This document shows, one piece after another, positions 1 through 64,000 of a DNA stretch of 64,000 nt. The notes beneath the pieces were generated by a model, which saw only the letters and a list, made by a program, of their open reading frames with translations, was not told the origin of the DNA and did not search any database. The position numbers and the translations under genes were made by a program. The stretch is from Arenicellales bacterium (GTDB lineage: Bacteria > Pseudomonadota > Gammaproteobacteria > Arenicellales > Poriferihabitantaceae), in NCBI GenBank assembly GCA_963693025.1, contig OY843749.1, positions 712,719-776,718 on the forward strand, written 5' to 3'. Numbering within the stretch: position 1 is the stretch's first letter; every line of letters begins with the position of its first letter.

Positions 1-1045
1 TGTTGCAGCCGATGCATTCACGAATGTCGTCCGCCCGCCCCGCTTCAATCTTGGCGGGCAGAAACGGGTCGGCAATCGACGGGCGCGCGGCGCCGATGAG
101 ATCCAGCACGCCGCGCGCAATCAGCGATGCCATCGTGTCGGGCGAAGTGAACCGCCCGACCCCGACCACCGGTTTGCCGGTGACTTGCTTGACGAAGGCG
201 GTGTATTTTTCCTGATGGTTCTCCTCGGCAAAGCGCGCGCTCATCGAATCGTTCGACCAGTCGCTGAGGTTGACGTCCCACAAGTCGGGCAATTCTGCCA
301 ACATCTCCACCACCTCGCGCCCTTCGTGTTGCGCGCTGATGCCGTCTTCGCCTGCCAACTCATCGACCGCAAAACGCAACGCGACGCCGCAACGGTCGCC
401 GACCGCGTCTTTGGTGTCGCTAAGCAGTTCGCGCAAAAAACGCACGCGGTTCTCCAAACTGCCGCCGTATTCGTCGCTGCGTTGGTTGCGGCGTTTGGAG
501 ATGAAGTGGAACGGCAACGCCAGGTCGTGACCCGCATACACATACACGATGTCAAAACCAATATCGCGCGCGCGCAACGCCGCCTTGCGATGCCATCGCC
601 GGACGTTGGCAATGTCGCGCTTGCTCATCGCATAAGCCTGCGCCGGCTCATAACTGTCAACCAACATCGCCGACACGCCCATCGCCGGTAAGCGGCTGTA
701 TAAATTAGCGGACGCGTGACCATTGTGGGTAATCTCAATCGCCGCCAGCGAGTCGTGCCGATGCACCGCCTCCACCATCAACCACAACCGCTTGGCATCG
801 CCGTCATCCCACAACCGCCCCTCGATATAAGGCGACCACTCCGAACTCGGATGAATTTCCACCTCCTGAGTAGAAACCACCCCCCAACCTCCCTCAGCCT
901 TAATACCCCGCTGACACGCCTCCCCCCGAGGATAAACATGCCCCATGCCGTTGCAGTGCGGCACCTGATAAAACCGGTTGCGGCTGGTGACGGGACCGAT
1001 TTGCACCGGCTCAAACAGAATGTCGTAACGAGGGTCGCGGGGCAT
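1..1045 (-). CDS. Trimethylamine/dimethylamine/histamine dehydrogenase-like flavoenzyme (Old Yellow Enzyme fold, Fe-S); 3' part runs off the window
   Basis: Not in the ORF track; read manually from ATG at 1045: MPRDPRYDILFEPVQIGPVTSRNRFYQVPHCNGMG...NQRSDEYGGSLENRVR...IGAARPSIADPFLP...RECIGCN. Has the TMADH-type N-terminus, the RxDEYGGSxENR motif and the start of the CIGCNxC Fe-S motif. Confidence 0.85.
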   Translation of the reverse strand, partial: MPRDPRYDILFEPVQIGPVTSRNRFYQVPHCNGMGHVYPRGEACQRGIKAEGGWGVVSTQEVEIHPSSEWSPYIEGRLWDDGDAKRLWLMVEAVHRHDSLAAIEITHNGHASANLYSRLPAMGVSAMLVDSYEPAQAYAMSKRDIANVRRWHRKAALRARDIGFDIVYVYAGHDLALPFHFISKRRNQRSDEYGGSLENRVRFLRELLSDTKDAVGDRCGVALRFAVDELAGEDGISAQHEGREVVEMLAELPDLWDVNLSDWSNDSMSARFAEENHQEKYTAFVKQVTGKPVVGVGRFTSPDTMASLIARGVLDLIGAARPSIADPFLPAKIEAGRADDIRECIGCN

Positions 1046-1099
1046 GGGGTGGTTGCTCTGGGTGATGCTTTGGAGAATTATAGAGTGAATTCAACCTAA

Positions 1100-1550
1100 C
1101 TCGTCATTCATTACTCGTCATTCCCCCTACTTCGTCTCTCGAGCGTTAGTGTCCGTTGCCGCCGCGCTTTTTCTTTTAAGCGGCGGCTTACGGACACTTA
1201 CGTCCTCGGGAATCTCCCTAAGACTGGCACGGGCTTTGTTGGAGTTCACGGTAGACTTAGGGAGATTCCCGAAGGTGATGAAAAATATAGTCGCTATCCA
1301 GCCTGTGTAAAAACTCTCCGCATATCGAAAGGGTGGGAAAATACTCATCAGAATCGCATAAAAACAGGGGCGAGATGGGAAACTTATCCCTTTTTATGAG
1401 AGTTTTTGCTATGTCGGTGGGAAAATTTTTCATGCGCCGCTTGATTTTTGGAATTTTTACACTGCCTGTATCGCTCCTTATTTTTCTATCATTCGAGAAT
1501 GACGAAGTTGTGGAATGACGAAGTTGTGGAATGACGAGTTGTGGAATGAC
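1100..1550. repeat. Cluster 1 of the ~200-bp palindromic repeat, with a nested MITE and a 16-bp GAATGAC terminal array
   Basis: CTCGTCATTC at 1100 and 1114; unit body GAGCGTTAGTGTCCGTTGCC...GGGAATCTCCCTAAG...CTTAGGGAGATTCCC; TCGAGAATGACG ends at 1504, followed by (ag/aag)ttgtgGAATGAC x3. Confidence 0.92.
1299..1468. mobile_element. 170-bp non-autonomous MITE with IS1182-type terminal inverted repeats
   Basis: Left end CAGCCTGTGTAAAAACTC (1299-1316) and right end GAATTTTTACACTGCCTG (1451-1468) match 15/18 as an inverted repeat. TATC is duplicated on both flanks (1295-1298, 1469-1472). The left end matches the IS1182 end at 54082-54099 at 17/18. Confidence 0.85.
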
Positions 1551-1557
1551 AAAGCGA

Positions 1558-2928
1558 TCACAAATACCAAGCCCCTTCATTCAGCTCACTTTCCACAAAC
1601 GCACGATACTCAGCCAACTTACAACTAGTATAAGCATCCAAATACTCCCGCCCGAAATAGTCGGGCAAGACTTGACCATGGCGGCAGGCTTCAAATGCGC
1701 GTTGTGGGTCGAGGGGCATTTGGGGGTCGGGTTGGGCGGCGGCGTTTCCGGTGGCGGGGGGACCCGCGTCGCTGCGGTTGACGATGCCGTGGTGGATGCC
1801 GGCGAGCAACGCCGCCAGGGTCAGGTAGGGATTGGCGTCGGCGCCGGCTACGCGGTGCTCCAGGCGGCGTTCGCTGCTTGCGCTCTTCGGCACGCGAATC
1901 GCCACGGAGCGGTTTTCGTAACCCCAACTGGGGCTGACCGGCACGTAACTGTCGGGCACAAAACGGCGGTAGGAATTGATGTTGGGCGCGAAGAGCGCCA
2001 TCGACTCCGCCAGGGTTTGCTTGAGCCCGCCGATGGCGTGACCGAGCAGCGGGCCCGCGCATGCGGGCGTGCCGTATTCACCGTCGCCGGCGAAGACGTT
2101 GCGCCCGCCGGCGTCGAGCAAACTGATATGCAAGTGCAGCCCGCTGCCGGCGTTGGCGGCGCTCGGCTTGGCCATGAAGGTGGCTTGCATGCCGTGTTTT
2201 TTCGCCACGCACTGAACCGCGCGGCGAAACATCACGCACTGGTCGGCGGCGGCGAGCGGGCGGTCGCTGTGGCGCAGGTTGATTTCAAACTGACCGGGGG
2301 CGTATTCCGCCGATATGGCGCCGGTTGCGATGCCCTGTTGGGCGCAGGCGTCGCTGACTTCGTGCAAGTAGTGGCTGAAACTTTCGACTTGGTCGATGCT
2401 GTATACCTGAGTGGCGGCGGCGCGCTGTCCGCTGAGCGGTGATAGCGGCGGTTGAATGCGTTGACCATTGTCGTGCGCCGGGTCAATCAGATAGAACTCA
2501 ATCTCAAACGCGACCACCGGCGTGAGCCCTAATTCGCCGAAGCGCGCGAGCACCTTGGCGAGCACATTCCTCGGCTCAAAATAATAAGGCGCGGCATCCG
2601 CGCTTTGCAGGGTCAGCAGAACCTGGGCGGTCGGGTAACGCGCCCACGGCGCCGGCGCCAGCGTGCCGGCGATGGGAATGCCGACTTCGTCGGGGTCGCC
2701 GTCGGAAAACCCCAGCCCTTCGGGGTCATGCGAATCACCGGTGACCGCCAGCAAAAACGACGAGCCGGGCAACATCATGCCGCCGCTGAAAACCTTCTCG
2801 GCCATGTCAACCGGATAACGCTTGCCGCGAATCACGCACGACAAATCGCACAAGACCGCATCCAGATATTGCGTGTCGGGGTGGCGTTGCAGATACGCGC
2901 CGAGGGGCGTGGGGTGGGTGGCGTTCAT
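1558..2928 (-). CDS. Glutamine synthetase-family gamma-glutamyl-amine ligase (PuuA-like)
   Basis: 456 aa with DLxxxxRGK, AFEIEFYL, EYAPGQFEINL, ATFMAKP, GSGLHLHISL, WGYENRSVAIR, EHRVAGADANPYL motifs. ATGA overlap with the upstream EamA stop. Confidence 0.85.
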   Translation of the reverse strand: MNATHPTPLGAYLQRHPDTQYLDAVLCDLSCVIRGKRYPVDMAEKVFSGGMMLPGSSFLLAVTGDSHDPEGLGFSDGDPDEVGIPIAGTLAPAPWARYPTAQVLLTLQSADAAPYYFEPRNVLAKVLARFGELGLTPVVAFEIEFYLIDPAHDNGQRIQPPLSPLSGQRAAATQVYSIDQVESFSHYLHEVSDACAQQGIATGAISAEYAPGQFEINLRHSDRPLAAADQCVMFRRAVQCVAKKHGMQATFMAKPSAANAGSGLHLHISLLDAGGRNVFAGDGEYGTPACAGPLLGHAIGGLKQTLAESMALFAPNINSYRRFVPDSYVPVSPSWGYENRSVAIRVPKSASSERRLEHRVAGADANPYLTLAALLAGIHHGIVNRSDAGPPATGNAAAQPDPQMPLDPQRAFEACRHGQVLPDYFGREYLDAYTSCKLAEYRAFVESELNEGAWYL

Positions 2929-3830
2929 CGAATGTCAGGGTGAGGCTTGCGCGGTACATCGCGCCACGCAATTCGCTCCCGCCACGCGATGAAGACGCCG
3001 CTGCCGACGACGATGGCGGCGCCGAGTAGCGTGGTGGGCGACAGCACTTCGCCGTAGAGCAGAAACCCGACGAGCATCGCCCATACCAACACGAAGTAGT
3101 TGAACGGTTGCAGTATCACCGCCGGCACCAGCGACAGCGCTTTGATGAGCAGCAAATGACCGATGATGGAAGTCAGGCTGATGACCAGCAACCACAGCGC
3201 ATCGGCGGTGGTCATCGGCTGCCAGTTGAAGGGCGCGATGAGCGCGGCGCCGATGAAGCCGACCACGGCGATGTAGAGAAACGAAGTCTCGAAAGAATCG
3301 TCGCGCGACACCTTGCGCGTGAGGATGTTATAGAGCGCAAACATGAACGCGGAAGCGAGCGCGATGGCCGCCGCGGGTTGGAAAACCGCGCTGCCGGGGC
3401 GCAGGATGATGAGCGTGCCGATGAACCCGCAACACACCGCAAGCCAGCGCCGCCAGCCGACCGCCTCGCGCAGAAGCGGCATCGACAGCGCGGTGATGAT
3501 GAGCGGGAAGCAGGCGAAGAGCGCGTGGATTTCGGCGAGCCCGAGGAACTGGATGGCATAAGCGAAGACGATGATTTCGCCGCCAATCAACAACCCGCGA
3601 AAAACCTGCAACCCCGGCCACCGCGACCGAAACGCCGCCGCAATCCCAACACGCCGCCCGACATAAATAAGCGCAAACACCGCAAAAAAGAAAAACCGCA
3701 CCGCCACAATCTGCGACGCCGCCAGCGTCTGCATCAAATGCTTGGTCAACGCATCCTGCGACGCAAAAAACAACGTGGCGATGACCAGCATGATGATGGC
3801 TTGGGTGGTGGGATCGCGGGGGGTGGGCAT
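2925..3830 (-). CDS. DMT/EamA-family transporter
   Basis: Hydrophobic ~10-TM protein (RWLAVCCGFIGTLIILRPG; AVILQPFNYFVLVWAMLVGFLLYGE). Start moved to ATG 3830 (MPTPRDP); a TATAAT lies upstream on the minus strand (3892-3897). Confidence 0.85.
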   Translation of the reverse strand: MPTPRDPTTQAIIMLVIATLFFASQDALTKHLMQTLAASQIVAVRFFFFAVFALIYVGRRVGIAAAFRSRWPGLQVFRGLLIGGEIIVFAYAIQFLGLAEIHALFACFPLIITALSMPLLREAVGWRRWLAVCCGFIGTLIILRPGSAVFQPAAAIALASAFMFALYNILTRKVSRDDSFETSFLYIAVVGFIGAALIAPFNWQPMTTADALWLLVISLTSIIGHLLLIKALSLVPAVILQPFNYFVLVWAMLVGFLLYGEVLSPTTLLGAAIVVGSGVFIAWRERIAWRDVPRKPHPDIR

Positions 3831-3961: not shown

Positions 3962-4831
3962 TTATGCGGCGGTGAGTACGGCCACGCCGAACAGGATGAG
4001 CAGCGCCCAGCGAAAGCGTTGGCGCAGGTTCTGTTCGCCGAGTAGCAGCGCTCCGAGCAGCACCGACATTAATATGCTTGTCTCTCGAACCGGCGCGACA
4101 TAAATAACCGGCGTAAAAGTCAGCGCATACAAGACGAGGATGTAGGCAAGCGGATTGAGAATCGCAATGCCGATGACTGCCGCGCGGTGTTGGCGCCAGT
4201 GCGCGATGATTTGTGTTTTGCGCCGCGCTGCAAACGGCGCGAGTAGCACACAACGGCTGCATGCGGAAGCATAGTCCAGCAGTAGCGGATGAATCAACAA
4301 CACCGAGACCGCATACGCGTCCCACACCGTATAACCGCCAATCAACACACCGGCGCCCAGCCCAAACAGCAACGACGAGGGCGCGTGTTGTGAAAGACCG
4401 CCGGCTTTAAGCGAGAAGCGCGCGGTTAGACACAACACGCCGATGATGATTGCCGCACCGCCGACAACCACTTGCGCATTCGGGCGTTCACCGAGGAAAG
4501 CGATTGCAAGCGCCGAAGAAAGCAGCGGACCGGCGGCGCGCGCGAGCGGATAAACCAGCGATAAGTCACCGTGCCGGTAACCATTTTGCAGCAACAGGAA
4601 ATAGCCGAGATGCAGCGCCGCGCTGCCGGCGATAAACACTGCCTGCGCCGCGTCAAAAACCATCGCGCGCGCAACCAACAGATAAGCCGCGAGCGGAAAA
4701 TACAAAACGACCGACAGCAGCGAAAACAACCACACCAGTTCCGCCCCGCCATTAATGCGTTTGACCAGAAAATTCCACCCCGCATGACAGCATGCGGCGG
4801 CCAAAACCAACGTCATACCCAGCAACGACAT
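3962..4831 (-). CDS. DMT/EamA-family transporter
   Basis: LVLAAACCHAGWNFLVK, GYRHGDLSLVYPLARAAGP and YVAPVRETSILMSVLLG motifs. Start set at ATG 4831 behind a GGAGGG RBS. Confidence 0.85.
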   Translation of the reverse strand: MSLLGMTLVLAAACCHAGWNFLVKRINGGAELVWLFSLLSVVLYFPLAAYLLVARAMVFDAAQAVFIAGSAALHLGYFLLLQNGYRHGDLSLVYPLARAAGPLLSSALAIAFLGERPNAQVVVGGAAIIIGVLCLTARFSLKAGGLSQHAPSSLLFGLGAGVLIGGYTVWDAYAVSVLLIHPLLLDYASACSRCVLLAPFAARRKTQIIAHWRQHRAAVIGIAILNPLAYILVLYALTFTPVIYVAPVRETSILMSVLLGALLLGEQNLRQRFRWALLILFGVAVLTAA

Positions 4832-4879
4832 AACACCCTCCGCGCGACGAAAAGACGGACGCAACCGCCCGCGCCTTCC

Positions 4880-5035: not shown

Positions 5036-6196
5036 TCAGGATGCTGGAAGTTCAAGCGCGCGTTGCAATGCGGTTTTTTGGCGGTGGGTTTGCAGGGCGA
5101 GTTGGATTAGGCGGTCTATTAGGTCGGCGTAGGGGATTCCGGTGGCGGCCCATAGGCGGGGGTACATGCTGATGGGGGTGAAGCCGGGGAGGGTGTTGAT
5201 TTCGTTGAGGGTGACTTGTTGGGTTTCGCGGTGGACGAAAAAGTCCACGCGCGCGAGGCCCGCGCCGTCTATTTCTTGGAAGGCGGTGACGGCGAGTTCG
5301 CGCACGCGTTCGGCGGCTTGGGCTTCTATGTTGGCGGGGATGACCAACTCGGATTTGTCGTCGATGTATTTGGTGGTGTAGTCGTAGAACTCGGCGCCGG
5401 GTATGATTTCGCCGACCACCGAGGCTTGCGCGTCGTCGGCGTTGCCGAGCACGGCGCATTCGGCTTCGATGCAGTTTTCCATGGACTGCTCCAGCACGAT
5501 TTTGTTGTCGAATTGGAATGCCAGTTGGATGGCGGCTTGCAACTGCGCGCGCTCGTGCGCCTTGCTGATGCCGACGCTGGAGCCGAGGTTCGCCGGCTTG
5601 ACGAAAATAGGGTAGTCGAGCCGGGCTTCGCCGCGTTCGACGACGGCGTTCGGGTCGCGTTGCCACTGTGCGGCGGTGACGCCGAGATAGTCCGCTTGCG
5701 GGATGCCGGCGGCGGCAAAGATTTTCTTGGCGAGGATTTTGTCCATGGCGAGCGCCGAGGCGGCCACGCCGCAGCCGACGTAGGGGATTCCCGCCATTTC
5801 AAACACGCCCTGCAGCGTGCCGTCTTCGCCGAAGGTGCCGTGCAGCGCCGGGAAAATGACATCGAGGGACGGCAACGCGGCGTCCGGCGGTGGTGGGGTG
5901 GTCGCCGCCAGATTGCCTTGATAGTGCAGGTCGAGGGTGACCGGGTTGCCGCCGGTGGTGTCGTCGGGTTTGTTGCGAGCGTGCGCGCGATGCGCGATGG
6001 GTTTGACTTCGCCGCCGCCAAGCAGCGAGTCGAAGTCGTCGGCGAGATGCCAGTGGCCGGTTTTGTCGATGCCGATTAGGCTGATGTTGTATTGGCTTCG
6101 GTCGAGGGCTTGGAGGATGCAGCGCGCGGAGGTGACCGACACTTCGTGTTCGCAGGAGCGCCCGCCGAACAGCAACCCGAGGTTGATTTTTTTCAT
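5036..6196 (-). CDS. ddl: D-alanine--D-alanine ligase
   Basis: FGGRSCEHEVS, FPALHGTFGEDGTLQG, FVKPANLGSSVGISK, NEINTLPGFTPISMYP. Confidence 0.96.
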   Translation of the reverse strand: MKKINLGLLFGGRSCEHEVSVTSARCILQALDRSQYNISLIGIDKTGHWHLADDFDSLLGGGEVKPIAHRAHARNKPDDTTGGNPVTLDLHYQGNLAATTPPPPDAALPSLDVIFPALHGTFGEDGTLQGVFEMAGIPYVGCGVAASALAMDKILAKKIFAAAGIPQADYLGVTAAQWQRDPNAVVERGEARLDYPIFVKPANLGSSVGISKAHERAQLQAAIQLAFQFDNKIVLEQSMENCIEAECAVLGNADDAQASVVGEIIPGAEFYDYTTKYIDDKSELVIPANIEAQAAERVRELAVTAFQEIDGAGLARVDFFVHRETQQVTLNEINTLPGFTPISMYPRLWAATGIPYADLIDRLIQLALQTHRQKTALQRALELPAS

Positions 6197-6212
6197 CGGC
6201 GGGCGTGCGCCG

Positions 6213-7673
6213 TCAGATGGCGAAGCGCCGGATGACGTCGGCGCACAGCGAAATCAAGCCGTCAATCCACGGCAGGATGGCGATGATGCCGAGCGCGTTG
6301 AAGGTCAGCAGCAGGCGCGCATCGAGCGGGGCGGGCTCGGCGCGCGCCGCTTCGGGTTGCTCCTCGGGCGCGTCGAAATACATCAGTTTGATGACGCGCA
6401 GGTAGTAGAACGCGCCGACCACCGCCAGCAGCACCGCCACCACCGCCACCCACACCAACTCGGCGCGAACCAGCGCTTGGATGACCGCGAGTTTGGCGAA
6501 GAAGCCGGCGGTCGGCGGGATGCCCGCCATCGACAGCATCAGAATCATCAGCAAAAACGCGACCCACGGGTTGCGCGCGCTCAGCCCTTTGAGGTCGGTG
6601 AGCCGGTCGGATTCGTGGTCGGCGCGCGTCAGGCAGAGGATGGCGCCGAACGCGCCGAGGCTCATCAGCGAATAAATCAGCACATAGAACAGCGAGGCGC
6701 TGTAGCCGTGCGCGCCGCCGCTTGCGATGCCGAACAGGAAGAACCCCATGTGCGAGATGGTGGAATACGCCAGCATTCGTTTGAGGTTGGTTTGCGCGAT
6801 GGCGATGATGTTGCCGGCGGCGACCGACAGGATGGCGAGGATGAGCAGCATCTGTTGCCAGAGCGCGAACAGGTCGCCGAGGCCGCCGGCAAGCAAGCGC
6901 ATGACCAGCGCGAACGCGGCGATTTTGGGCGCGGCGCCGAGGAACGCGGTGGTCGAGGTCGGCGAGCCGTGATACACATCCGGCACCCACATGTGGAACG
7001 GCACCGCGCCGAGTTTGAAAGCCAGCGCGACGACGATGAACACCACCGCCAGCGCGACCGCCGCGTTGTTGTGGTCGGCGCCGGCGAGCGCGGTGCGGAT
7101 GGCGGACAACTCGAGCGAGCCGGACAAGCCATACAACAGCGACATGCCATACAACAGCATGCTGGAGGCGAGCGCGCCGAGCACGAAGTATTTCATCGCC
7201 GCCTCGCTCGCCAGTTTGTCGTCGCGGTAGCAGGCGATCATCGCATACAGGCACAGCGACATTAACTCCAAGCCGAGATACAGCGTCAGCAAGTGGTTGG
7301 CGGACGCCATCACCATCATGCCGGCGACCGCGAACAAGCCGAGCACGTAGTATTCGTTGGTGAAGATGCCGCGCGCGCGGTTGTAGCGTCGGCCATAGAT
7401 GAAGGCGCCCGCGGACAGCAGGCAGACCGCGATTTTCAGCAACTTGGCGAGCGGGTCGGCGATGAACAGGTTGTTGAAGGCGGCCACCGTGCCGGCGGCG
7501 AAGTCCATGCCGCTCAGCGTTGCTGTGACCGCCAGCGCGGCGATGCTGAGCCAGTAACAAGCCGTGTCGTTGTTTTTTTTGCCCGCCACGCCGAGCACCA
7601 GAATCGCGCACGCCGCCAGCGAAATAAATATCTCCGGCAACGCGGCGGCGGCTTTTAGCGAGTCGAACGTCAT
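6213..7673 (-). CDS. nuoN: NADH-quinone oxidoreductase subunit N
   Basis: EAAMKYFVLGA, FKLGAVPFHMWVPDVYHG, KRMLAYSTISHMG. Start at 7673 gives an ATGA overlap with the nuoM stop. Confidence 0.96.
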   Translation of the reverse strand: MTFDSLKAAAALPEIFISLAACAILVLGVAGKKNNDTACYWLSIAALAVTATLSGMDFAAGTVAAFNNLFIADPLAKLLKIAVCLLSAGAFIYGRRYNRARGIFTNEYYVLGLFAVAGMMVMASANHLLTLYLGLELMSLCLYAMIACYRDDKLASEAAMKYFVLGALASSMLLYGMSLLYGLSGSLELSAIRTALAGADHNNAAVALAVVFIVVALAFKLGAVPFHMWVPDVYHGSPTSTTAFLGAAPKIAAFALVMRLLAGGLGDLFALWQQMLLILAILSVAAGNIIAIAQTNLKRMLAYSTISHMGFFLFGIASGGAHGYSASLFYVLIYSLMSLGAFGAILCLTRADHESDRLTDLKGLSARNPWVAFLLMILMLSMAGIPPTAGFFAKLAVIQALVRAELVWVAVVAVLLAVVGAFYYLRVIKLMYFDAPEEQPEAARAEPAPLDARLLLTFNALGIIAILPWIDGLISLCADVIRRFAI

Positions 7674-9160
7674 GGCAGTTTGGAGACCGCGATATGCGCG
7701 AGCAGGTTGTCGATGGTGGCGTGCATGACTTCGAGCAGCGGGTTGGGCCACACGCCGACCAGCAGAACCAACACAGCGAGGATGGACAGGAAGGCGGTTT
7801 CGCGCACATCGACATCGGCGAGCGCGGCGACTTGCTCGGAGGCGACCGCGCCGTAGATGACGCGCTTGACCATCCACAGCGTATACGCGGCGCCGAAAAT
7901 CAGCGTGAGCGCGGCGATGGCGGCGACCCAGGCGTTGACCCGAAAGGCGCCGAGGATGACCAGGAACTCGCCGACAAAACCCGAAGTCGCGGGCAAGCCG
8001 GCGTTGGCGAGCGCGAACAGCACCACGAAGCCGGCGAACACCGGCATGGGCGTGGCGATGCCGCCGTAGGTTGCGATCATGCGCGAGTGCAGGCGGTCAT
8101 ACAACACGCCGACGCACAGGAACAGCGCGCCGGAGATGAAGCCGTGGGAAATCATCTGAATCATCGCGCCCTCGGCACCGTGGGCGTTGAAGAGAAACAA
8201 GCCGAGGGTGACGAAGCCCATGTGGGAGATGCTGGAATAGGCGATGAGTTTTTTCATGTCGCGCTGCGCGAGCGCCACCAGCGCGATATAAACCACCGCG
8301 ATGAGCGACAGCGTAATCATCAGCCACGCCAACTCGATGCTGGCGTCCGGCGTGATGGGCAGGCTGAAGCGGATGAAACCGTAGCCGCCCATTTTCAGCA
8401 TAATCGCCGCGAGAATCACCGAGCCGCCGGTGGGCGCTTCGACGTGCGCGTCCGGCAGCCAGGTGTGCACCGGGAACATCGGCACCTTGACCGCGAAGGC
8501 GGCGAAGAACGCCAGGAACAACAACACCTGCGGGGCGAGCGCGAGTTTCAGGGCGTGGTAGTCGAGGATGCTGAAACTGCCGCCAGCGGCGTTGTAGAGG
8601 TAGAGCAACGCAACCAGCATGAGCAGCGAGCCGAGCAGGGTATACAGGAAAAACTTGATGGTCGCGTAGATGCGGTTGGGTCCGCCCCAGATGCCGATGA
8701 TGAGGAACATCGGAATCAGCATCGCCTCCCAGAAGAGGTAGAACAAGACCGCGTCGAGGGCGGCGAACACGCCGATCATCAAGCCCTCCATAATGAGGAA
8801 CGCCGCCATATACTGCGCCACGCGCTCGGTGATGACTTTCCAACCGGCGATGACAACCACCACGGTCAGCAGGGTGGTCAGCAGAATCAGCGGCAGGGAA
8901 ATGCCGTCAATACCGAGCGAGTAATGGATATTGAACGCGCTGACCCAAACCGCGTGCTCGCCGAATTGCATGGCCGCGGTGGCGGTGTCGAAGCGCGTGT
9001 AAAGCGGCACGCTCAACAGAAAAATCGCAACGGAAAACCCCAGCGCCAATCTGCGCGCCAACGCATCACGACGCTCGCCTTCCCCCCGCCCGGCGGCGAC
9101 GACCAACACACCGGCGAGGATGGGAAGCCAGATTAGCCAACTGAGCAAGTTATTTTCCAT
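7670..9160 (-). CDS. nuoM: NADH-quinone oxidoreductase subunit M
   Basis: FYLFWEAMLIPM, KVPMFPVHTWLPDAHVEAPTGGS, KKLIAYSSISHMG. Confidence 0.97.
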   Translation of the reverse strand: MENNLLSWLIWLPILAGVLVVAAGRGEGERRDALARRLALGFSVAIFLLSVPLYTRFDTATAAMQFGEHAVWVSAFNIHYSLGIDGISLPLILLTTLLTVVVVIAGWKVITERVAQYMAAFLIMEGLMIGVFAALDAVLFYLFWEAMLIPMFLIIGIWGGPNRIYATIKFFLYTLLGSLLMLVALLYLYNAAGGSFSILDYHALKLALAPQVLLFLAFFAAFAVKVPMFPVHTWLPDAHVEAPTGGSVILAAIMLKMGGYGFIRFSLPITPDASIELAWLMITLSLIAVVYIALVALAQRDMKKLIAYSSISHMGFVTLGLFLFNAHGAEGAMIQMISHGFISGALFLCVGVLYDRLHSRMIATYGGIATPMPVFAGFVVLFALANAGLPATSGFVGEFLVILGAFRVNAWVAAIAALTLIFGAAYTLWMVKRVIYGAVASEQVAALADVDVRETAFLSILAVLVLLVGVWPNPLLEVMHATIDNLLAHIAVSKLP

Positions 9161-9178
9161 ACGCGCCGCCCTTCGCCC

Positions 9179-11140
9179 TCACAACCAAACAAAAAAGGTG
9201 ACGAAACAGAACAAGCCGACGATCATCGCGAAGGCGTAGTGGTAGGTGAAGCCGGTTTGGAGGTTGCGCATGATGCCGGAGCAGGCGCGCACCAGGCGGG
9301 CGGAGCCGTTGACGATGATGCCGTCTATGAGACCTGCGTCGATGCGCGTTGACAGCATGTTGCCGAGGTTGAGCGAGCCTTTGGCGAAGGCGGCTTGATA
9401 GAATTCATCGAAGCCGTATTTGTTTTGCAAGATTCGATGGAGGGGTCCCGCGGCGGCGGCGATTTTGGCGGGTAGTTGGGTGTTTTTGCAGTAGCCATAC
9501 CAGGCGAGGCCGATGCCGGCGACCGCCAGCCAGAAGGGGGCGGTGAGCACGCCGTGCAGTATCGCCGACAGGATGAGGTCGAAGCCGTGTTTGCCGTGAT
9601 GGACGGCTGCCAATTTCGCCACGACATCGTGTTGCGGGTTGACGTGGATGGCGTTGCCGAAAAACGCGCCGTTGATGACCGGCTCGAAGAACATCCAGCC
9701 GGTTATTACCGACGGAATCGCCAGCGCAACCAGGGGCCAAATCACGACGCCGGGGGATTCGTGCAGGCGCTCGCGGGTGTGTTGGTCGGAGCGGTTGCTG
9801 CCGTGGAAGGTCATGAACAGCAGCCGGAACGAGTAGAAAGCGGTGACAAACACGCCCAGCAGCACCGCGACATACGCGTAGCCCGCGCCCCACACATCGC
9901 TGTGGCGCGCCGACTCGATAATCGCGTCTTTGGAAAAGAAGCCGGCGAACGGCGGGATGCCGGCGAGCGCCAACGAGCCGACCGCGGCGGTGATGTAGGT
10001 GATGGGCATGATTGCCCTGAGCCCGCCCATTTTGCGCATGTCCTGTTCGTGGTGCATGGCGATAATCACCGAGCCGGCGGCGAGGAACAGCAGCGCCTTG
10101 AAGAAGGCGTGCGTGCCGAGGTGGAAGATGGCGATTTCATAGGCGGACGCGCCGAGCGCGACGGTCATGTAGCCCAACTGCGAGAGCGTCGAATACGCCA
10201 CCACGCGCTTGATGTCGTTCTGCACCAAGCCGACCAGCGCCATGAAAATCGCGGTGGTTGCGCCGATGACCAGCACCACCGACAGCGCCGTCTCGGACAA
10301 TTCAAAGAGCGGCGACATGCGCGCCACCATGAAGATGCCGGCGGTCACCATGGTGGCGGCGTGAATCAACGCCGAGATGGGCGTGGGTCCCTCCATGGAG
10401 TCCGGCAGCCACACGTGCAACGGCACCTGCGCCGACTTGCCCATGGCGCCGACGAACAGCAGCAGGCAGATAATCGTCATCCACTTCCACTCGCCGAACA
10501 CGCCCGCCACGGTTTGCCCGGCGGCGGCTTCGGCGCCGGCGAACACCGCGCCGTAGTCGAGCGAGCCGAACAGATACAGCACCGCGGCGATGCCGAGCAG
10601 AAAGCCGAAGTCGCCCACGCGGTTGACCAGGAAGGCTTTGAGGTTGGCGGCGATGGCGCTGTCGCGTTCATACCAGAAACCGATTAGCAGATAGGACACC
10701 AGACCGACCGCTTCCCAGCCGAAGAACAACTGCAGGAAGTTGTTCGCCATCACCAGCATCAGCATGGCGAAGGTGAACAGCGCGATGTAGCAGAAGAAGC
10801 GCTGATAGCCGGGGTCGTCCGCCATGTAGCCGATGGTGTAGATGTGCACCATGAGCGAGACGAAAGTGACCACGATCATCATCATCGCGCTCAACTCGTC
10901 GATCATAAACCCGATTCGCAACGGCACGCCGCCGCTCACCGCCCAGGCGTAGATGGTGTCGTTGAACAGGTTGCCGGCGCGCACATCGGCATACACCACC
11001 AGCGACAGCACGAAGGCGGCGCCGACCCCGGCGATGGCGACCGAATGCGCGCCGCGGCGACCGATGACTTTGCCGAACAATCCGGTGATGACGGCGGCGG
11101 CGAGGCAGATGAGCGGGATTGCCAGATAGATGTTTCTCAT
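9179..11140 (-). CDS. nuoL: NADH-quinone oxidoreductase subunit L
   Basis: [57 protein letters not shown]. Confidence 0.97.
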
Positions 11141-11442
11141 CCCTTGAGCGAGTCCAATTCTTCGACGTTGATGGTGCGGCGGCTGCGGAACAGCACGATG
11201 AGGATGGCGAGGCCGATGGCGGATTCCGCCGCCGCCACGGTCAGAATAAAAAACACGAACACCTGTCCGGCGGTGTCTTGGAGGAAGTGCGAGAAAGCCA
11301 CGAAGTTGATGTTGACCGCGAGCAGCAATAACTCGATGGACATCAGCAAGATGACGACGTTTTTGCGGTTGAGAAAAATCCCGACCACGCTGAGGGCGAA
11401 CAGGATGGCGCCCAGGGCGAGATAGTGCGAGAGCGGAATCAT
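11137..11442 (-). CDS. nuoK: NADH-quinone oxidoreductase subunit K
   Basis: [27 protein letters not shown]; 101 aa. Confidence 0.97.
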
Positions 11443-12535: not shown

Positions 12536-12556
12536 GGTTTTACTCCGGTTGGTGGT

Positions 12557-54099: not shown

Positions 54100-55757
54100 T
54101 ACTGTTCGATAACAAGTATCAAAGGGTGTTCTCTCCCTCCGACTTTGACTTCATCATTTCTGATGAGGCACACCGTTCCATTAGCGGTAATGCGCGCGCA
54201 CTGTTTGAGTATTTTCTCGGCTATAAACTGGGACTCACGGCCACGCCGAAGGATTATCTAAAAAACCTGGAGAATAAGCCCACGGATGCCCGCGAAATGG
54301 AACGGCGTTTGCTACTGGATACCTACCGCACTTTTGGCTGCGAAAGTGGAGAGCCGACTTTTCGTTATTCATTAGTGGACGGAGTACGGGACGGTTACTT
54401 GGTGAAAACCTATGTGGTGGATGCTCGTAGCGAAATCAGCCAAGAGTTGCTGTCGGATGGAGGTCACACTGTCAGTATCCTCGGCGAGGATGGCGATCTG
54501 GAAGAGCATTCTTATATCAGCAAAGATTTTGAGCGGAAGTTCTTGTCCGATCCGACCAATCGGGTTTTTTGCGATACCTTTCTTAAGTACGCTGAGCGCG
54601 ACCCAGTGAGTGGCGAGATTGGCAAAACCATCGTTTTCACTGTCAGTCAAAATCACGCCGCTAAAATTACCCAGCTACTGAACCAGATGGTGGATGAAAT
54701 GTTCCCCGGCAAGTACAACTCGGACTTTGCCGTCCAGGTGACATCTCTTGTTCAAGGCGCCCAGCAATTCAGCCGCAATTTTTCCAACAACAACCTGAAT
54801 GGGTCGGGCCATTTTTCGGATTCCTACAAGACTTGCAAAACCCGCGTGTGCGTTACCGTGGGCATGATGACCACCGGTTATGACTGCACAGATATTCTTA
54901 ATCTTTGCTTGATGCGCCCAATTTTTTCGCCTACGGATTTTGTGCAGATGAAGGGCCGCGGTACCCGGCGCCATGATTTTCTGGAGCAGTTGACCAGCAA
55001 TGACCTCAAAGAAGAAATTGGAGTCGCGCGAAAAGATCATTTCAAACTGTTCGATTTTTTTGCCAATTACGAATACTTTGAGGAAAAGTATGATTATGAT
55101 CAAGTGATCGAGTTACCACACCTCGGTGAGGGTGCTGGTAGCGTTGGCACCGAGCAAAATCAGGCGAAATATGAAAGCCAAGAACCCGATCAACTTAAAA
55201 GTTGGGATGAAACGCTCATCGGCAAGGAAGGAATGAAAGTAGATCGAAAAATGTTTGATCGTTTTGAGGAAACGGTCAAAGCTGACGAGTTTATCCGCCG
55301 TGGTGTTGAGACCGGACAGTGGGGGATTGTCATCAACCATTTGAAAGAAAATGTGTTTGACCGGCCGGAAGATTACTTCAATCTGAAAAAATTACGCTGG
55401 GCGGTGGGTGCCGACCGCCGCCTAAGCCACCGGGAATTGTTGGAAAAAGCATTTGGATTAATTCCGCGTTTCAAATCGAAAGACGAGTTGCTGGAAGAGG
55501 AATTTAATAAATTCATTGCCGACTGCAAGCCTGATAATCCAGAAAGCATTGTACCTATGAAGTACTACTTCAAGGCCTATGTTACGGACAGCCAAGTACG
55601 GGAAATTGTGGGGAATAAGGATTTCTCCAAACTCTATGCAAACTCGGTTTTGCCCTTTGAGGACTACAAAAACGTGCCCGAAAAATGGCGCGAAACCATT
55701 CCTGAATACATCAAGGATTATGTCCAACTCAACCCGTTCATCGGGTAAGGTACGGTC

Positions 55758-59147: not shown

Positions 59148-60206
59148 CTAGCGACGCGAGGCCGGTTTGAGGTCTATACAAGTAATTTCATTAAGCGAGC
59201 CAAGGCGCATGAGAGGTCCCCAGGTGCCGGTGCCGGGGGAGACGTAGAGGTGGGCGTTGTCTTTGCTGTATAGGCCTCGGATGCGTTGGTATTGGCTTTT
59301 TACCAGCAGGTTGAACGGGAAGATTTGGCCGTTGTGGGTGTGTCCGCAGAGCATCAAATCTACGCCGTGTTCGAGCGCGGTTTCCCAGCCCATTGGGCGG
59401 TGATAGAGCAGCACGGTGTAGCGGTCGCTGTGGCATTCGATGCCCGGCAGGTTGTCCGCCACTTGATGGTGTTCGTCGGCGTCATCGATGCCGATGACCT
59501 GAATTTCGCCGGCGATGACCTGTTGCTGGCGCAGCGATTCAACGCCCAAATGCGCCAGCATGCCGAGCGCCTTGTCGAGGTCGGCGTAGCGCTCGTGGTT
59601 GCCGATGGTGAACAGCGTCCGGGCGCGCAGTTGGCGCAGGAATTTGAGGTCGTCGTGGCCGACCGCCGAGGAGTCGATGAGGTCGCCGGTGATGACCACG
59701 ACATCCGGTTCCAGCCGGTTGATTCGGTTGACGATTCTTCCGAGATAGCCGCCGCGGCGCGAGCCAATGTGGACATCGCTAATCTGCACGATGCGGTGCG
59801 GCTTGGTGACCTTGGCGGAGGCGAACTCCAGGTGTTTGACCTTGAGATAATGCGACGCCAGCACCGCCAGCACGACCAGCGCCGCGGCGATGCCGAGAAT
59901 CCAACCGACCGCCGCCGCGTCCGACACCGGCGCCAGCAGGCGAATCACTTCATACGGCAGCGTCAGGCACAGCAGGATGAAACTGACGCCCATCCAGTGA
60001 ACCGTGACATAGCGCACGCGCATTTTCGCGCCGCTGAATGAATACCACAGCGCGGCGGTGGCGAGCAGCCAAATCAGCACGGTGGGTCCCGCGCCGAGCG
60101 CGGTCTCAGCGCCATACCACGCGGCCAGCCGGTTGACCGGATAGGCGAACACCAAGAACGACACCAGCGGAAACAGGAGATAGAACCAACGCCTTGTTGT
60201 GGTCAT
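59148..60206 (-). CDS. Membrane-anchored metallophosphoesterase (YkuE/YaeI-like)
   Basis: SDVHIG, ITGDLID, GNHE, LLYHRP, CGHTHNGQI, YVSPGTGTWGP. Confidence 0.9.
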   Translation of the reverse strand: MTTTRRWFYLLFPLVSFLVFAYPVNRLAAWYGAETALGAGPTVLIWLLATAALWYSFSGAKMRVRYVTVHWMGVSFILLCLTLPYEVIRLLAPVSDAAAVGWILGIAAALVVLAVLASHYLKVKHLEFASAKVTKPHRIVQISDVHIGSRRGGYLGRIVNRINRLEPDVVVITGDLIDSSAVGHDDLKFLRQLRARTLFTIGNHERYADLDKALGMLAHLGVESLRQQQVIAGEIQVIGIDDADEHHQVADNLPGIECHSDRYTVLLYHRPMGWETALEHGVDLMLCGHTHNGQIFPFNLLVKSQYQRIRGLYSKDNAHLYVSPGTGTWGPLMRLGSLNEITCIDLKPASRR

Positions 60207-61784: not shown

Positions 61785-63109
61785 CGAGCGCGCTCCGTCG
61801 TCGTCGTGTCGGCGTCCGCATCGGTACCGACCCATGGGCGGCAGTAAGTTTCGCGCAGCAGCAGGATGCACACCAGCGCCAGGAGATTGGAGCCGATGAG
61901 CACGGTGAAGGCGGTGGTATAGGCGTCGGCGGCGTAGATGCGCACGCCGTCCACGATGCGCCCGTCCCAGTTGAGGTCCAGCAGCCAGCCGATGACCGGC
62001 TGCATCACCGCCCCCGACCCGACCACGCACATATTGACCAAGCCCATGGCGGTCGCGCTGTGGCGGGGTGAGTTGACTTCGCGCATCGAGCCGAACACCA
62101 CGGTCATCATCGAGCCGCTGAGCCCCAGCACAAAAAACAACACCGACATCACCGCCGGCGCGCTGAAGCCGGCGAACAGGATGACCGAAAAAAGCAGCGT
62201 GTTGCAGAGGATGCCGCCGAGCAGAACCGGCTTGCGCCTGCCCTGGAAATCCGACAACCAGCCCATGGCGGGCGCGCCGATTGCCCAGCCGAAGAACAGC
62301 ATCGACGACACCCCGGCGGCGGTCGCCATCGGATAACCAAAAACGCTGTTGAGCCACGGCACCGCCCATAGCCCGGCGAACGCCAGCATGATGCCGGTCA
62401 TGCCGAAACCGATGCCGGCGCACGCCCAACTCTGCGGATTGGCAATCACCGCGAACACGCCTTTGGCGGTGCTCGGCGCTTCATGCTGCGGCTGATGTTG
62501 CGGCGGATGTTGCGCGGACTGCGGGCGGCGCGGCACGATATAGAACAACGACACCGCCAACGCCACCGACACCACGCCCAGCGAGCCGATGACCATGCGC
62601 CAGCCGAATTGCTCCACCACATACCGCAGCGGCGCTTGACTGAGCACCGCGCCGAGCATGCCGATGCTCTGCACCAATCCGGCGAGCATCGCAAAACGCG
62701 CCGGCGCAAACCAGTAGCCGGCGATGGTCAGCGTGCCGACAAATGCGAACGCCACCGAGCCGCCGATCAACGCGCGAAAAAACGACGCCGCCCAGAGCGA
62801 TTCGCTGAGCGCAAAGCCAAACGAACTCAGCGCGCACACCGCCACCGCAACGCTCATCAGTTTGCGCGGACCGAAGCGGTCGTTCAACATCCCAACCGGG
62901 ATTTGGATGCTGGCATAGGCGTAAAAATACCAACCCGACAACGTGCCCAACGCCGCCGCACCAACCGAAAAATCGCGCATCCATTCGGCGGTCATCACAC
63001 TCGGCGCAACCCGATGCACAAAAGCCAAAGCAAAAAACAACGCCCCCACCGCAAAAGCGGCCAGCGCACGCGAGGAAGAAACAACACGGTCGGGAGGGTT
63101 CACCGGCAT
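61781..63109 (-). CDS. MFS transporter
   Basis: 12-TM pattern with MFS motif G.LNDRFGPRK and GWLSDFQGRRK. Confidence 0.88.
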   Translation of the reverse strand: MPVNPPDRVVSSSRALAAFAVGALFFALAFVHRVAPSVMTAEWMRDFSVGAAALGTLSGWYFYAYASIQIPVGMLNDRFGPRKLMSVAVAVCALSSFGFALSESLWAASFFRALIGGSVAFAFVGTLTIAGYWFAPARFAMLAGLVQSIGMLGAVLSQAPLRYVVEQFGWRMVIGSLGVVSVALAVSLFYIVPRRPQSAQHPPQHQPQHEAPSTAKGVFAVIANPQSWACAGIGFGMTGIMLAFAGLWAVPWLNSVFGYPMATAAGVSSMLFFGWAIGAPAMGWLSDFQGRRKPVLLGGILCNTLLFSVILFAGFSAPAVMSVLFFVLGLSGSMMTVVFGSMREVNSPRHSATAMGLVNMCVVGSGAVMQPVIGWLLDLNWDGRIVDGVRIYAADAYTTAFTVLIGSNLLALVCILLLRETYCRPWVGTDADADTTTTERAR

Positions 63110-63249
63110 CGAGTCAATGGATTGTAAAGTTGGCGGCGCACAAGCAACCGCAAAGCGGGCATATTATACGCAACACGCACACACGGCGGAGCAAACCGGC
63201 CAGACTTTACGGGGCATGAATTCGCCCCATTCCGGAATGGCGGCTATTA

Positions 63250-63575
63250 CTCGTCATTCTCGAGCGTTAGTGTCCGTTGCCGCCGCGCTTCTTCTTTTAA
63301 GCGGCGGCTTACGGACACCCCCGCTAACACACTGCGGGGGCAGGCTTGCGTCCTCGGGAAAAATCCGCCGGGAGCGGATTTTCGCGTAGCCCGAAGGGCG
63401 CGTATCAGGGATGATACGCGCAATCTCCCTAAGACTGGCACGGGTTTTTGTTGGAATTCACGGTAGCCTTAGGGAGATTCCCGAGGTCGTAAGCGCCCGT
63501 AAGCCGCTACGCGGCAACGGGCGCTAACGCTCGAATGACGACGTGGGGGGTATTTTCTACCGTTCGAGAATGACA
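63250..63575. repeat. Cluster 6 of the ~200-bp repeat: symmetric chimeric copy with tri-hairpin insert, plus a terminal fragment
   Basis: Left arm, then a 63-nt insert (63361-63423), the central hairpin, and the reverse complement of the left arm ending TCGAATGACG at 63540. Confidence 0.9.
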
Positions 63576-63650
63576 ACCACACATCAAGCACCCACCCCAC
63601 CACCCCGCCATTTTTGTTAAAATACCCCCGTCCCCCACCCCACCACCTCA

Positions 63651-64000
63651 ATGACAACGCCCCCCAACTTCTTCGACAACCCCATGGTTGAAGCCGAGGA
63701 CATTCATTTTTCCTTCGGACAGCGCCGCATCTACGAAGGGCTTGATTTGCTCATCCCGCGCGGCAAGGTCACCGTTATCCTGGGACCCAGCGGCTGTGGC
63801 AAATCAACTTTTTTGAGTTTGGTTGGCGGGCGGTTGCGGCCTCGGGGGGGGCGGTTGTTGGTGGATGGGGAGGGGGTTCCGCCGCAGGGTAGCAACCGGC
63901 TGTTTGAGATGCGGCGCAAGATGGGGATGTTGTTTCAGAGTAGCGCGCTGCTGACCGACCTCACGGTGTTCGACAACGTCGCCTTCCCGTTGCGCGAGCA
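63651..64000 (+). CDS. mlaF: ABC transporter ATP-binding protein, MlaF-like (3' truncated by the window)
   Basis: Read manually: MTTPPNFFDNPMVEAEDIHFSFGQRRIY...GPSGCGKST...RRKMGMLFQSSALLTDLTVFDNVAFPLRE. Confidence 0.8.
   Translation, partial: MTTPPNFFDNPMVEAEDIHFSFGQRRIYEGLDLLIPRGKVTVILGPSGCGKSTFLSLVGGRLRPRGGRLLVDGEGVPPQGSNRLFEMRRKMGMLFQSSALLTDLTVFDNVAFPLRE

Follow-up and report, generated by a model that had tools for sequence, protein, structure and literature searches.

Complementary C/A-rich and G/T-rich codon states beside gene-unit boundaries in a gammaproteobacterium related to sponge symbionts

The stretches described here are closest in composition to rut sites and C>G bubbles, which are C-rich, G-poor, poorly structured RNA of >78 nt upstream of the stop point (PMC6144790). 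In that study, bubbles >78 bp gave Rho termination in all tested templates, G-rich motifs (GG, GGT, TGG) correlated inversely with termination, and CA, AAC, ACA and CAC together with GT and GTG were among the most discriminating descriptors, the sign of their effect left aside; refractory regions were placed in ORFs and strong ones antisense (Nadiras et al., 2018). Our stretches would share the putatively refractory G-rich composition and this placement of strong sites (often antisense) and refractory ones (in ORFs). They differ from rut sites in being made by near-complete synonymous re-coding of coding sequence, with a putative role in Rho termination, and in their sharp edges, their bipartite layout (C/A-rich, or M, then G/T-rich, or K) and their complementary use of both strands.

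In Bacilli, Rho avoidance shapes a gene-wide nucleotide bias (PMC13323073, 2026). There, as we suggest here, selection on Rho-bindable RNAs shapes codon choice, sense and antisense composition are separated and foreign genes are affected. That bias is mild and lies on the purine/pyrimidine axis; ours is found locally at unit ends, is extreme, follows the amino/keto axis and reverses its sign inside genes. In eukaryotic genes transcribed by RNA polymerase II, skews of opposite sign likewise mark the two gene ends; they are seen at four-fold sites, reach amino-acid choice and are linked to transcription phases, but their sign is the other way round (5' C-biased, 3' G-biased), they change gradually, and Rho is absent. 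Replication and mitochondrial strand skews share the G+T versus C+A axis and the origin-like upward jumps, but have a mutational origin and one or two switches per replicon; here the switches recur every few kb at gene-unit ends, and polymorphism opposes a present mutation bias. Finally, a ~212-bp repeat found here resembles REP/BIME repeats of 3' untranslated regions in following stops, often between convergent genes, and in being an insertion sequence (IS) target; it differs in sequence and size, and its tie to the skew is only positional.

Skew jumps and codon states at unit boundaries

The window, by which we mean the whole 64-kb stretch of DNA analysed, comes from a bacterium of ~59% GC, a gammaproteobacterium and kin of the 'Ca. 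Poriferihabitaceae' sponge symbionts. We compared the keto skew, K = (G+T-C-A)/N, between neighbouring 150-bp windows on the + strand, and found 7 upward (C/A to G/T) and 0 downward jumps when the difference had to reach 0.55, against 15 upward and 7 downward when 0.45 sufficed. Jumps lie at 945/975, 3725/3775, 5000/5070, 9225, 11990/12035, 24780/24790, 30295/30305, 38260/38275, 44325 and 63725/63770. Larger intergenic regions have an upward jump on either side and a downward crossing between. A sequence-only reading of this DNA had listed such switches; the jump positions match its list, and the 7-to-0 count agrees with it; its point at ~59150 falls below the jump threshold, yet a tract was found at 59217-59400. 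Its description of the skew as local, strand-symmetric, origin-like in polarity and chiefly at silent sites is upheld. It had placed the switches near gene boundaries, and several lie instead within coding sequence, 10-40 codons upstream of the stop (for example at ~1670, in a glnA-like gene). The comparison with shuffled controls that it called for separated the skew from chance: under synonymous shuffling within genes, the 5'-versus-3' third-position contrast was non-random (z = 6.4, 0/2000). Single tracts reach |z| = 5-8 once the content predicted from the amino acids is subtracted. The 64 kb contain about 20 tracts and no fewer than 15 jumps, tied to gene ends; a replication origin/terminus skew, with one switch per replichore on a megabase scale, was rejected on this count.

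Third codon positions occur in three states: ordinary, G/T-rich (K) and the complementary C/A-rich (M). Where a boundary has an intergenic gap or a convergent neighbour, the 3' part of the gene is M over ~100-150 codons; the change to a K tail, which fills the last 10-40 codons, takes only a few codons. This layout produces the C/A-to-G/T jumps on the + strand. Many gene 5' ends are in the K state for 60-170 codons. The tracts (strand given where one applies) are as follows.

530 to 974, minus strand: K tract, codons 23-171 (5' part) of an Oxidored_FMN (OYE-like; Pfam) gene, z +8.4
1564 to 1651, minus strand: K tail, final ~30 codons of the glnA-like gene, G/T-ending, z +5.9
1696 to 1804, minus strand: M tract of the same gene, switching to the K tail at ~1670 inside the coding sequence, z -4.7
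3585 to 3774, minus strand: first EamA transporter gene, K tract near its 5' end, z +8.0
4634 to 4859, minus strand: K tract, 5' end of the second EamA gene, z +5.5
5060 to 5483, minus strand: M tract, 3' part of ddl, z -8.1
9230 to 9545, minus strand: M tract, nuoL 3' end, z -6.0
14038 to 14188, minus strand: M tract, nuoI 3' end, beside an inserted methylase gene
19163 to 19349, minus strand: K tract near the nuoF 5' end, beside inserted genes, z +4.7
22498 to 22714, minus strand: nuoD 3' end, M tract (22531-22714) and short K tail (22498-22528)
24239 to 24782, minus strand: nuoC, K tract (24491-24782, z +7.1) at the probable true 5' end and K tail (24239-24320, z +6.3)
26457 to 26685, minus strand: nuoB 3' end, M tract (26598-26685) and K tail (26457-26526)
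29428 to 29539, minus strand: K tract, 5' end of a P-type ATPase gene, z +5.1
30305 to 30479, minus strand: M tract, 3' end of the PBP1A gene, z -5.8
37993 to 38242, plus strand: M tract, 3' end of a Spy/CpxP-like gene, z -5.7
38698 to 38827, minus strand: M tract, rsmI 3' end, z -5.0
44107 to 44263, plus strand: M tract, 3' end of a cytidylyltransferase (rfaE2-like) gene, with a sharp start at ~44080, z -5.6
44262 to 44296: small hairpin over both stops of a convergent pair with an 11-bp gap (junction folding)
44329 to 44452, minus strand: M tract, 3' end of a membrane-protein gene, z -5.6; C>G bubble 456 nt, maximum C-G 50%
46420 to 46762, plus strand: K tract, 5' end of an isochorismatase gene, z +7.9
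51067 to 51415, plus strand: M tract, 3' end of a GST gene, z -6.6
59217 to 59400, minus strand: M tract, 3' end of a metallophosphoesterase gene, z -4.8
62924 to 63086, minus strand: K tract, 5' end of an MFS transporter gene, z +5.8
63809 to 63953, plus strand: K tract, 5' part of an ABC ATPase gene, z +7.2

The two states are near complements of each other, and all degenerate classes follow the amino-to-keto axis, Leu TTG versus CTG among them. At the extreme, four-fold sites are C 0.76, G 0.11 and T 0.01. In the second EamA K tract Leu is TTG and the sense strand is nearly A-free, and ddl leans M throughout (CTA, ATA and CAA codons), with a 444-nt C>G bubble reaching the stop. The bias had been described as almost entirely synonymous, which is mostly but not solely the case. 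The metagene of positions 1 and 2 moves in the third-position direction, 5-10 times more weakly, and the shift that amino-acid differences from orthologues cause at these positions is +0.69 for G/T tracts, -0.62 for C/A tracts and -0.09 elsewhere. Silent positions beside unit boundaries, and weakly also amino-acid choice, are held in two complementary states.

We assembled a boundary sample of 149 genes from the window and 10 loci of the same organism, with transcription units defined by gene spacing alone. Genes with a gap of at least 60 bp or a convergent neighbour had an excess third-position skew of -0.2 to -0.44 at codons -150 to -30 and of +0.3 to +0.76 in the final 10 codons. The tail exceeded the tract in 57 of 70 unit-terminal genes (p = 1e-7), versus 28 of 52 internal genes. 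Junctions with gaps <25 bp were flat, with no tract pattern. The nuoL|nuoM junction has a tract despite a gap of only 18 bp, some boundaries (the pyk/MFS convergent overlap, argH, lysA) have no tracts, and aroB/argH has the sign opposite to the usual pattern.

The intergenic repeat, an insertion sequence and other strains

Hairpin-rich copies of a ~212-bp repeat, which matches no Rfam family, lie mostly right after stop codons and often between convergent genes. One IS also falls in the window.

1086 to 1560: one copy of the ~212-bp repeat, structured, intergenic and MITE/REP-like
29756 to 30295: two tandem copies of the 212-bp repeat
38286 to 38673: 212-bp repeat separating convergent genes
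52540 to 54074, minus strand: IS1182-family insertion sequence splitting hsdR, transposase z +17.8

The ORF at 29572-30057 is unlikely to be a gene. The K tail is strongest beside the repeat (+0.75 vs +0.31), and the tract pattern is found at repeat-free boundaries too. On the strand that reads toward the repeat, genes abutting it with their 3' end (n = 29) and, to a weaker degree, those abutting it with their 5' end (n = 9) have a broadly similar composition. The transposase gene is in the K state over its full length, with zero C>G windows in 1.47 kb of mRNA, and the repeat is the IS target in 10 of 11 other IS copies. The window as a whole contains foreign low-GC islands, one IS and many repeats.

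A further 214 kb from other parts of this organism shows the pattern again, as do several related species, and it appears on many separate contigs and in assemblies produced by other projects; the unrelated taxa compared lack it. The same boundary type is used in several species, and tract occurrence differs from species to species. The ddl M tract is present with a following gap or convergent gene (the window, L131-L136, L007) and missing from the loci in which ddl and its neighbour overlap (L130, L137, L004); it is also absent in L002, where ddl lies ~30 bp from the next gene and where the OYE-like orthologue (88% aa) has no K tract. At the nuoL junction, close strains carry inserted defence genes.

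To follow polymorphism we used 8 close strains (97.6-98.7% identity), all of which share the tracts unchanged. Rare synonymous variants in M tracts lead away from the tract state in 53 cases and toward it in 16 (p = 9e-6), at a per-site rate (0.11) equal to that of other genes; in K tracts, where numbers are small, 13 lead away and 9 toward. Synonymous divergence in the tracts is not reduced, at 1.4-1.9 times that of the remainder. M tracts are enriched in A-to-C/C-to-A changes and the IS in T-to-G/G-to-T, and recent substitutions in the intergenic repeat copies have no strong strand asymmetry. The 53:16 excess means that the composition of M tracts is not explained by present mutation input; it must be held by selection or another fixation bias.

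Rho insulation as a possible reading

The reading we lean towards, with slightly less than even confidence and from sequence evidence, is that the tracts are Rho insulators for both directions, written at synonymous sites. M-state RNA is C/A-rich and poor in G and U, K-state RNA G/U-rich and poor in C and A, and the state would decide whether Rho loads. RNA nearing a boundary from either side would present a long M stretch first, a C>G bubble of rut-like composition, followed by ~30-120 nt of K sequence; RNA leaving the boundary would be the complement, a short M stretch and then a long Rho-refractory K stretch. A loading site on one strand would be a refractory or pause-prone zone on the other, so a single coding stretch could serve both directions. 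Unit-terminal mRNAs would thus reveal a strong loading site once ribosomes quit at the stop codon, antisense and read-in transcripts would encounter one immediately upon entering a gene end, and the K state would shield many genes in their 5' parts, and the transposase and some foreign genes along their entire mRNA, from premature termination. The role of the K tail within the last codons is conjectural.

A rut site is expected to have a C>G bubble that runs uninterrupted for ~78 nt or more; the bubbles in all 11 M tracts span 227-546 nt with a maximum C-G of 17-50%, compared with a median of 196 nt and 15% in gene middles. Tracts tend to sit at intergenic gaps and convergent junctions and, nuoL|nuoM apart, not at gaps <25 bp, as judged with units inferred from spacing, and some boundaries have none. 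Intrinsic-terminator-like sites are at chance level (24 found versus 20.8 expected), and C/A-rich RNA should be unable to self-pair. Against Rho insulation, the bias is extreme for a signal to which each site should contribute little, Rho has no obvious need of U depletion, and the amino/keto axis is also the classic deamination axis. The boundaries that lack tracts or have the reverse sign, the tract at the narrow nuoL|nuoM gap and the unreduced synonymous divergence speak against it too. Of the two explanations offered by the sequence-only reading, selection on mRNA ends is the one nearer to Rho insulation, but the signal resembles RNA composition sensed by Rho more than mRNA-end structure: folding z-scores of the junction segments are unremarkable. 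That reading had also known no standard feature class: composition classes do exist (C>G bubbles or rut sites, Rho-refractory G-rich sequence), but we found no description of the sharp bipartite layout within coding sequence in the literature searched.

Alternative explanations and significance

Ongoing strand-asymmetric mutation would produce the same axis if the strand running 5'-to-3' away from a switch were often single-stranded and subject to C-to-T and A-to-G deamination and G-to-T oxidation, the proposed source being the non-template strand in untranslated, divergent or read-through transcription, or R-loops. In vertebrate mitochondrial DNA, single-strand exposure is able to produce skews this strong. 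The exact amino-to-keto axis in all degenerate classes, the near-complementary states, the parallel drift of positions 1 and 2, the enriched A/C and T/G exchanges and the raised synonymous divergence, which fits a biased-mutation equilibrium, all speak for it. We nonetheless consider it unlikely. Flux balance expects as many changes toward the state as away, and M tracts give 16:53 at ordinary per-site rates, which disfavours the local mutational process (single-strand exposure, C-to-T deamination) proposed earlier; the repeat copies lack a clear asymmetry; promoters would be required ~100 bp within many coding regions; and the strongest tracts are in transporter and accessory genes, not nuo genes (expression inferred). 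The sign also flips inside genes and may mirror whichever gene end abuts the repeat (5' n = 9), so sense transcription could not set it. Transcription-associated mutational asymmetry was rejected on these flips and on the variants running against the state.

More doubtful still is a relic of episodic localised hypermutation or repair, now decaying, whether from breaks at hairpin-forming repeats or IS sites with resection and single-strand damage, or from DNA deaminase attack. The K-tail polarity is that of 3'-ended single strands at an intergenic break, the tail peaks beside the repeat, the IS sits in the repeat at 10 of 11 other copies, tracts vary among species, and the surplus of 'away' variants is compatible with decay. 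However, the polarity of the longer M tract is reversed, and none of the resection models tried explains this; 8 strains keep their tracts unchanged and the same boundary type recurs across species; boundaries without repeats are patterned too; and a one-off hypermutation would spare amino-acid positions less well. We give the same low credence to the tracts being footprints of an undescribed episodic strand-specific DNA editing or repair at intergenic repeats or unit boundaries, for example an ssDNA deaminase on resected or displaced strands; a few hundred bases at gene ends would be changed in a single polarity, after which purifying selection would leave largely silent differences.

Translational speed is a very improbable cause. 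G/T-ending codons are read by wobble and C/A-ending ones by Watson-Crick (cognate) pairing, a split paralleled by the endings here, so G/T-ending 5' parts could make slow starts and C/A-ending codons fast ends. Yet rare codons (CTA, ATA) are used in the 3' M tracts, the final 10-40 codons revert to G/T, positions 1 and 2 and first-position Leu choices shift as well, and the neighbouring intergenic gap, not the gene, determines the pattern, in tracts of 100-170 codons; a ramp over the first ~30-50 codons set by tRNA supply is largely refuted by the 3' rare codons, the length and the gap dependence. A mosaic of DNA imported through horizontal transfer or recombination, or else an artefact of sequencing or assembly, is the least credible of all: foreign islands, the IS and repeats in the window would suit it, but it is refuted for most tracts, which are strand-polar, follow a fixed rule of polarity and position, encode conserved residues of orthologous proteins and recur on independent contigs and in other projects' assemblies.

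If the mutational reading were true, no stronger local, strand-specific mutation process would be known from a bacterium. If Rho insulation is correct, the synonymous sites of this lineage would carry a second readable code, visible by eye and bending amino-acid usage, that specifies for both directions where transcription may begin, go on and end. Such a code would account for odd local codon usage that misleads gene finders and horizontal-transfer tests, and would allow Rho-dependent unit boundaries to be predicted from the DNA of uncultured high-GC bacteria, in which intrinsic terminators are scarce. Natural experiments would also be at hand: mobile elements and foreign genes appear to become Rho-refractory in composition, and the same junctions of an essential operon have received defence genes.

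Skew switches in the window

We compared raw keto skew, (G+T-C-A)/N, between adjoining 150-bp windows and found seven upward jumps and no downward ones with the minimum difference set to 0.55; lowering it to 0.45 gave 15 upward vs 7 downward. These jumps recovered all but one of the positions at which the sequence-only reading had placed switches from C/A-rich to G/T-rich sequence near gene boundaries. On the sense strand, third codon positions are G/T-rich (here state K) near many gene 5' ends and C/A-rich (state M) near many 3' ends, and this 5'-3' contrast exceeded that of every control with synonymous codons shuffled within genes (z=6.4, 0/2000 shuffles). After subtraction of the composition expected per codon family, about 20 coding stretches in either state (tracts) reached |z| of 5-8 in the window; the 11 strong C/A tracts without exception occupy the 3' parts of genes, and the G/T tracts mostly the 5' parts. 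A single sense-strand rule, K at the 5' part and M at the 3' part, produces the same plus-strand C/A-to-G/T jump at co-directional, convergent and divergent junctions, which explains why the pattern looks strand-symmetric. The bias was originally described as almost entirely synonymous. It does fall mainly on third positions; however, where the window proteins differ from their orthologues, positions 1 and 2 are shifted as well (+0.69 in K tracts, -0.62 in M tracts, -0.09 elsewhere).

The window is a bacterial chromosome segment with 59% GC, and its genes were mapped by Pfam scans of long ORFs.

Gene content of the window (Pfam)
Window: OYE-like oxidoreductase, glnA-like gene, two EamA transporters, ddl
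Minus strand: entire nuoN-to-nuoA operon; next, P-type ATPase and PBP1A
Plus strand: aroK, aroB, argH, lysA, Spy-like gene
Window: rsmI, lpoA-yraN-diaA-BON, cytidylyltransferase, membrane and MFS genes, GST
Window: type I hsdR split by an IS, fused hsdM/S gene, pyk, ABC ATPase

The ORFs at 29572-30057 (within repeat DNA), 23766-24224 and 21872-22270 are probably non-genes or have starts called too far upstream, and the nuoE and nuoC ORFs reach about 80-130 codons 5' of their Pfam domains. Restriction-modification and defence genes sit inside the nuo (complex I) operon at nuoJ|nuoI, nuoF|nuoE and nuoC|nuoB (12077-14194, 19459-21422 and 24826-26439); these low-GC inserts comprise an N6_N4 methylase fused to Mrr_cat and ORFs that lack a recognizable function. 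Close strains (L130-L138) carry other cargo at the same junctions and, at nuoL|nuoM, DndB-like as well as GIY-YIG genes; the operon junctions thus serve as insertion hot spots. Nearest to the window are MAGs of the sponge-associated 'Candidatus Poriferihabitaceae' (ddl 77% amino acid identity), and scans of genome and metagenome contigs returned no relative with ddl identity above 77%. Look-ups of the transposase and nuoK proteins showed that the ENA assembly ERZ22155170 includes this organism along with several close strains.

Layout at gene ends and the intergenic repeat

The anatomy was resolved in a larger sample, namely the window and ten more loci from the organism (21 kb each, with called genes), fetched via a multi-copy transposase; together they give 149 native genes, each 150 codons or longer. 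Genes followed by a gap of at least 60 bp or by a convergent neighbour carry an M tract at about codons -150 to -30 (excess third-position keto skew, K3, of -0.2 to -0.44), which gives way, often in the space of two or three codons, to a K tail over the final 10-40 codons (+0.3 to +0.76). The profile is flat at junctions whose gap is below 25 bp. The tail exceeded the tract in 57 of 70 genes that end a putative unit (p=1e-7) vs 28 of 52 internal ones, and the flip falls inside conserved coding sequence, for example in xseA, FMN dehydrogenase, thiolase and the glnA-like gene. In genes that begin a putative unit, the 5' part is K between about codon 20 and codon 100-170, with a modest mean (+0.15 to +0.2) and very strong values in some genes; several 5' K tracts in the window set in at most a few codons after the start codon. 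Positions 1 and 2 track the third-position pattern at 5-10 times smaller amplitude.

The same gene in another context takes another state. Thus ddl has an M tract when followed by a gap or by a convergent gene (the window, seven close strains and the related-species locus L007) and none where the next gene overlaps (loci L130 and L137, and L004 from a related species) or lies about 30 bp away (comparison locus L002). The pattern is present to varying degree in related species (L004, L005, L007, L009) and absent from the unrelated gammaproteobacterial, Deinococcus and Streptomyces loci. The skew layout is a real, strong, lineage-wide feature.

Composition of third codon positions by state
Four-fold sites, ordinary: C.47, G.43, A.05, T.05
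Four-fold sites, K tracts: G.62, T.19, C.18, A.01
Four-fold sites, M tracts: C.76, A.12, G.11, T.01
Two-fold pyrimidine sites, T: ordinary.26, K tracts.75, M tracts.06
Two-fold purine sites, G: ordinary.55, K tracts.91, M tracts.13

The choice between Leu TTG and CTG moves with tract state. Enrichment of k-mers in strand-oriented tracts yielded no motif past codon effects, and intrinsic terminators and sigma-70 promoters occurred only at chance level in the 36-52 kb examined.

Many spacers contain a hairpin-rich repeat of about 212 bp; 59 regions of it were counted across 278 kb of the organism's DNA. It has no Rfam match, and the window contains no known RNA family.

Copies of the 212-bp repeat in the window
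1086-1560
29756-30295
38286-38673
43458-43711
45795-46314
63227-63574

The repeat is found chiefly right downstream of genes: it is present in 13/20 spacers between convergent genes, 23/79 between co-directional genes and 4/22 between divergent ones. The skew is strongest beside it, and spacers that lack it have the same layout in weaker form. On the strand running toward the repeat, genes abutting it with their 3' ends (n=29) are K near the repeat and then M; those abutting with their 5' ends give a similar, weaker profile, from just nine genes with uncertain start codons. The repeat ends carry arrays of 16-bp GAATGACGAG-type units and copies are often tandem. At L123, a locus of the same organism, the final 10 or so codons and the stop codon of xseA (9890-9919) come from the repeat. 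A different, 23-bp unit occurs in five tandem copies at 47026-47163, between the convergent isochorismatase and MFS genes.

An IS1182-family element splits hsdR in the window (51604-55748), and its transposase gene (52585-54060) is K over its full length. In 10 of 11 other copies (L120-L129, around 9950-11530) the element sits inside the 212-bp repeat, which suggests that it prefers the repeat as a target. Among the 12 copies, 12 silent sites are variable, four of them T/G. At L126, five adjoining genes that lack a Pfam match (5832-12104) are, like the transposase, G/T-rich at third positions along their whole sense strand, and are possibly a mobile or foreign island.

Mutational and selective explanations

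We compared eight sequences of the nuo-ddl region (seven strain loci and the window, 97.6-98.7% identity), polarizing variants by frequency only, with the minor allele as derived; outgroup polarization was set aside as biased, the outgroup having no ddl tract. In M tracts, 53 synonymous variants lead away from the tract state and 16 toward it (p=9e-6), where an equilibrium under biased mutation predicts 1:1. Changes away occur at a per-site rate of 0.11, the same as in ordinary sequence, which is balanced (175:160). K tracts gave 13:9, numbers too small to decide. In the intergenic repeat copies, the strand bias of recent substitutions was weak and did not point the expected way.

These data go against the ongoing mutational process proposed from sequence. 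Ongoing single-strand deamination linked to transcription or R-loops matches the amino/keto axis of the tracts, but it clashes with the polymorphism, with the sign flip inside genes and with the mirror symmetry, and we regard it as unlikely. On balance, the tracts are being eroded by present mutation input and are to be put down to something else, be it selection or an episode in the past. Simple strong selection does not fit well, since synonymous divergence in the tracts is not lowered (two strains; small numbers). A past episode of hypermutation or break repair around repeats would account for the K tail and for polymorphism that resembles decay, but not for the M tract, which is longer and opposite, or for the recurrence across species, and we consider it improbable. 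Break-and-resection models were likewise set aside, as they fitted the K tail and not the longer M tract of opposite sign.

Rare CTA and ATA codons are used in M tracts, which rules out translational optimization; a codon ramp or tRNA adaptation was rejected on these codons, the dependence on the neighbouring gap and the shift at positions 1 and 2. Structure at mRNA ends had also been suggested, and folding of six junctions for large terminator hairpins or long-range pairing of G/U-rich with C/A-rich parts gave z of only -1.4 to +1.6. A small hairpin from a short inverted repeat (44262-44296) spans both stop codons of a convergent pair 11 bp apart. Transfer mosaics and artefacts were rejected as the cause of the tracts.

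A possible relation to Rho termination

M tracts form RNA stretches with C above G (C>G bubbles) of 227-546 nt, with a maximum C-G of 17-50%, and mostly end 0-16 nt from the stop codon (exceptions are the glnA-like gene, 72 nt, and PBP1A, 205 nt). They share this defining composition, long C>G bubbles, with loading sites of the termination factor Rho. Bubbles above 78 bp led to Rho-dependent termination in all templates tested by Nadiras et al., 2018 (PMC6144790), whose most discriminating descriptors, whatever their sign, include CA/AAC/ACA/CAC and GT/GTG, and in whose data G-rich motifs (GG, GGT, TGG) correlated inversely with termination. The same authors placed refractory regions within ORFs ('possibly to compensate for poor translation'), with strong ones antisense to genes. 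In Bacilli, avoidance of Rho can influence both the base composition of whole genes and what becomes of foreign ones (2026 study, PMC13323073).

From the composition of the M tracts and these two studies, we tentatively read the skew layout as Rho-related compositional coding, a reading that we favour over the others, at slightly less than an even chance. The transposase mRNA has zero C>G windows and, if poorly translated, might thereby escape Rho. At putative unit boundaries, RNA nearing the boundary would bear a Rho loading site, while RNA leaving it would carry a short loading site and, after that, a refractory stretch. The layout may thus amount to Rho insulators for both directions, written into coding sequence.
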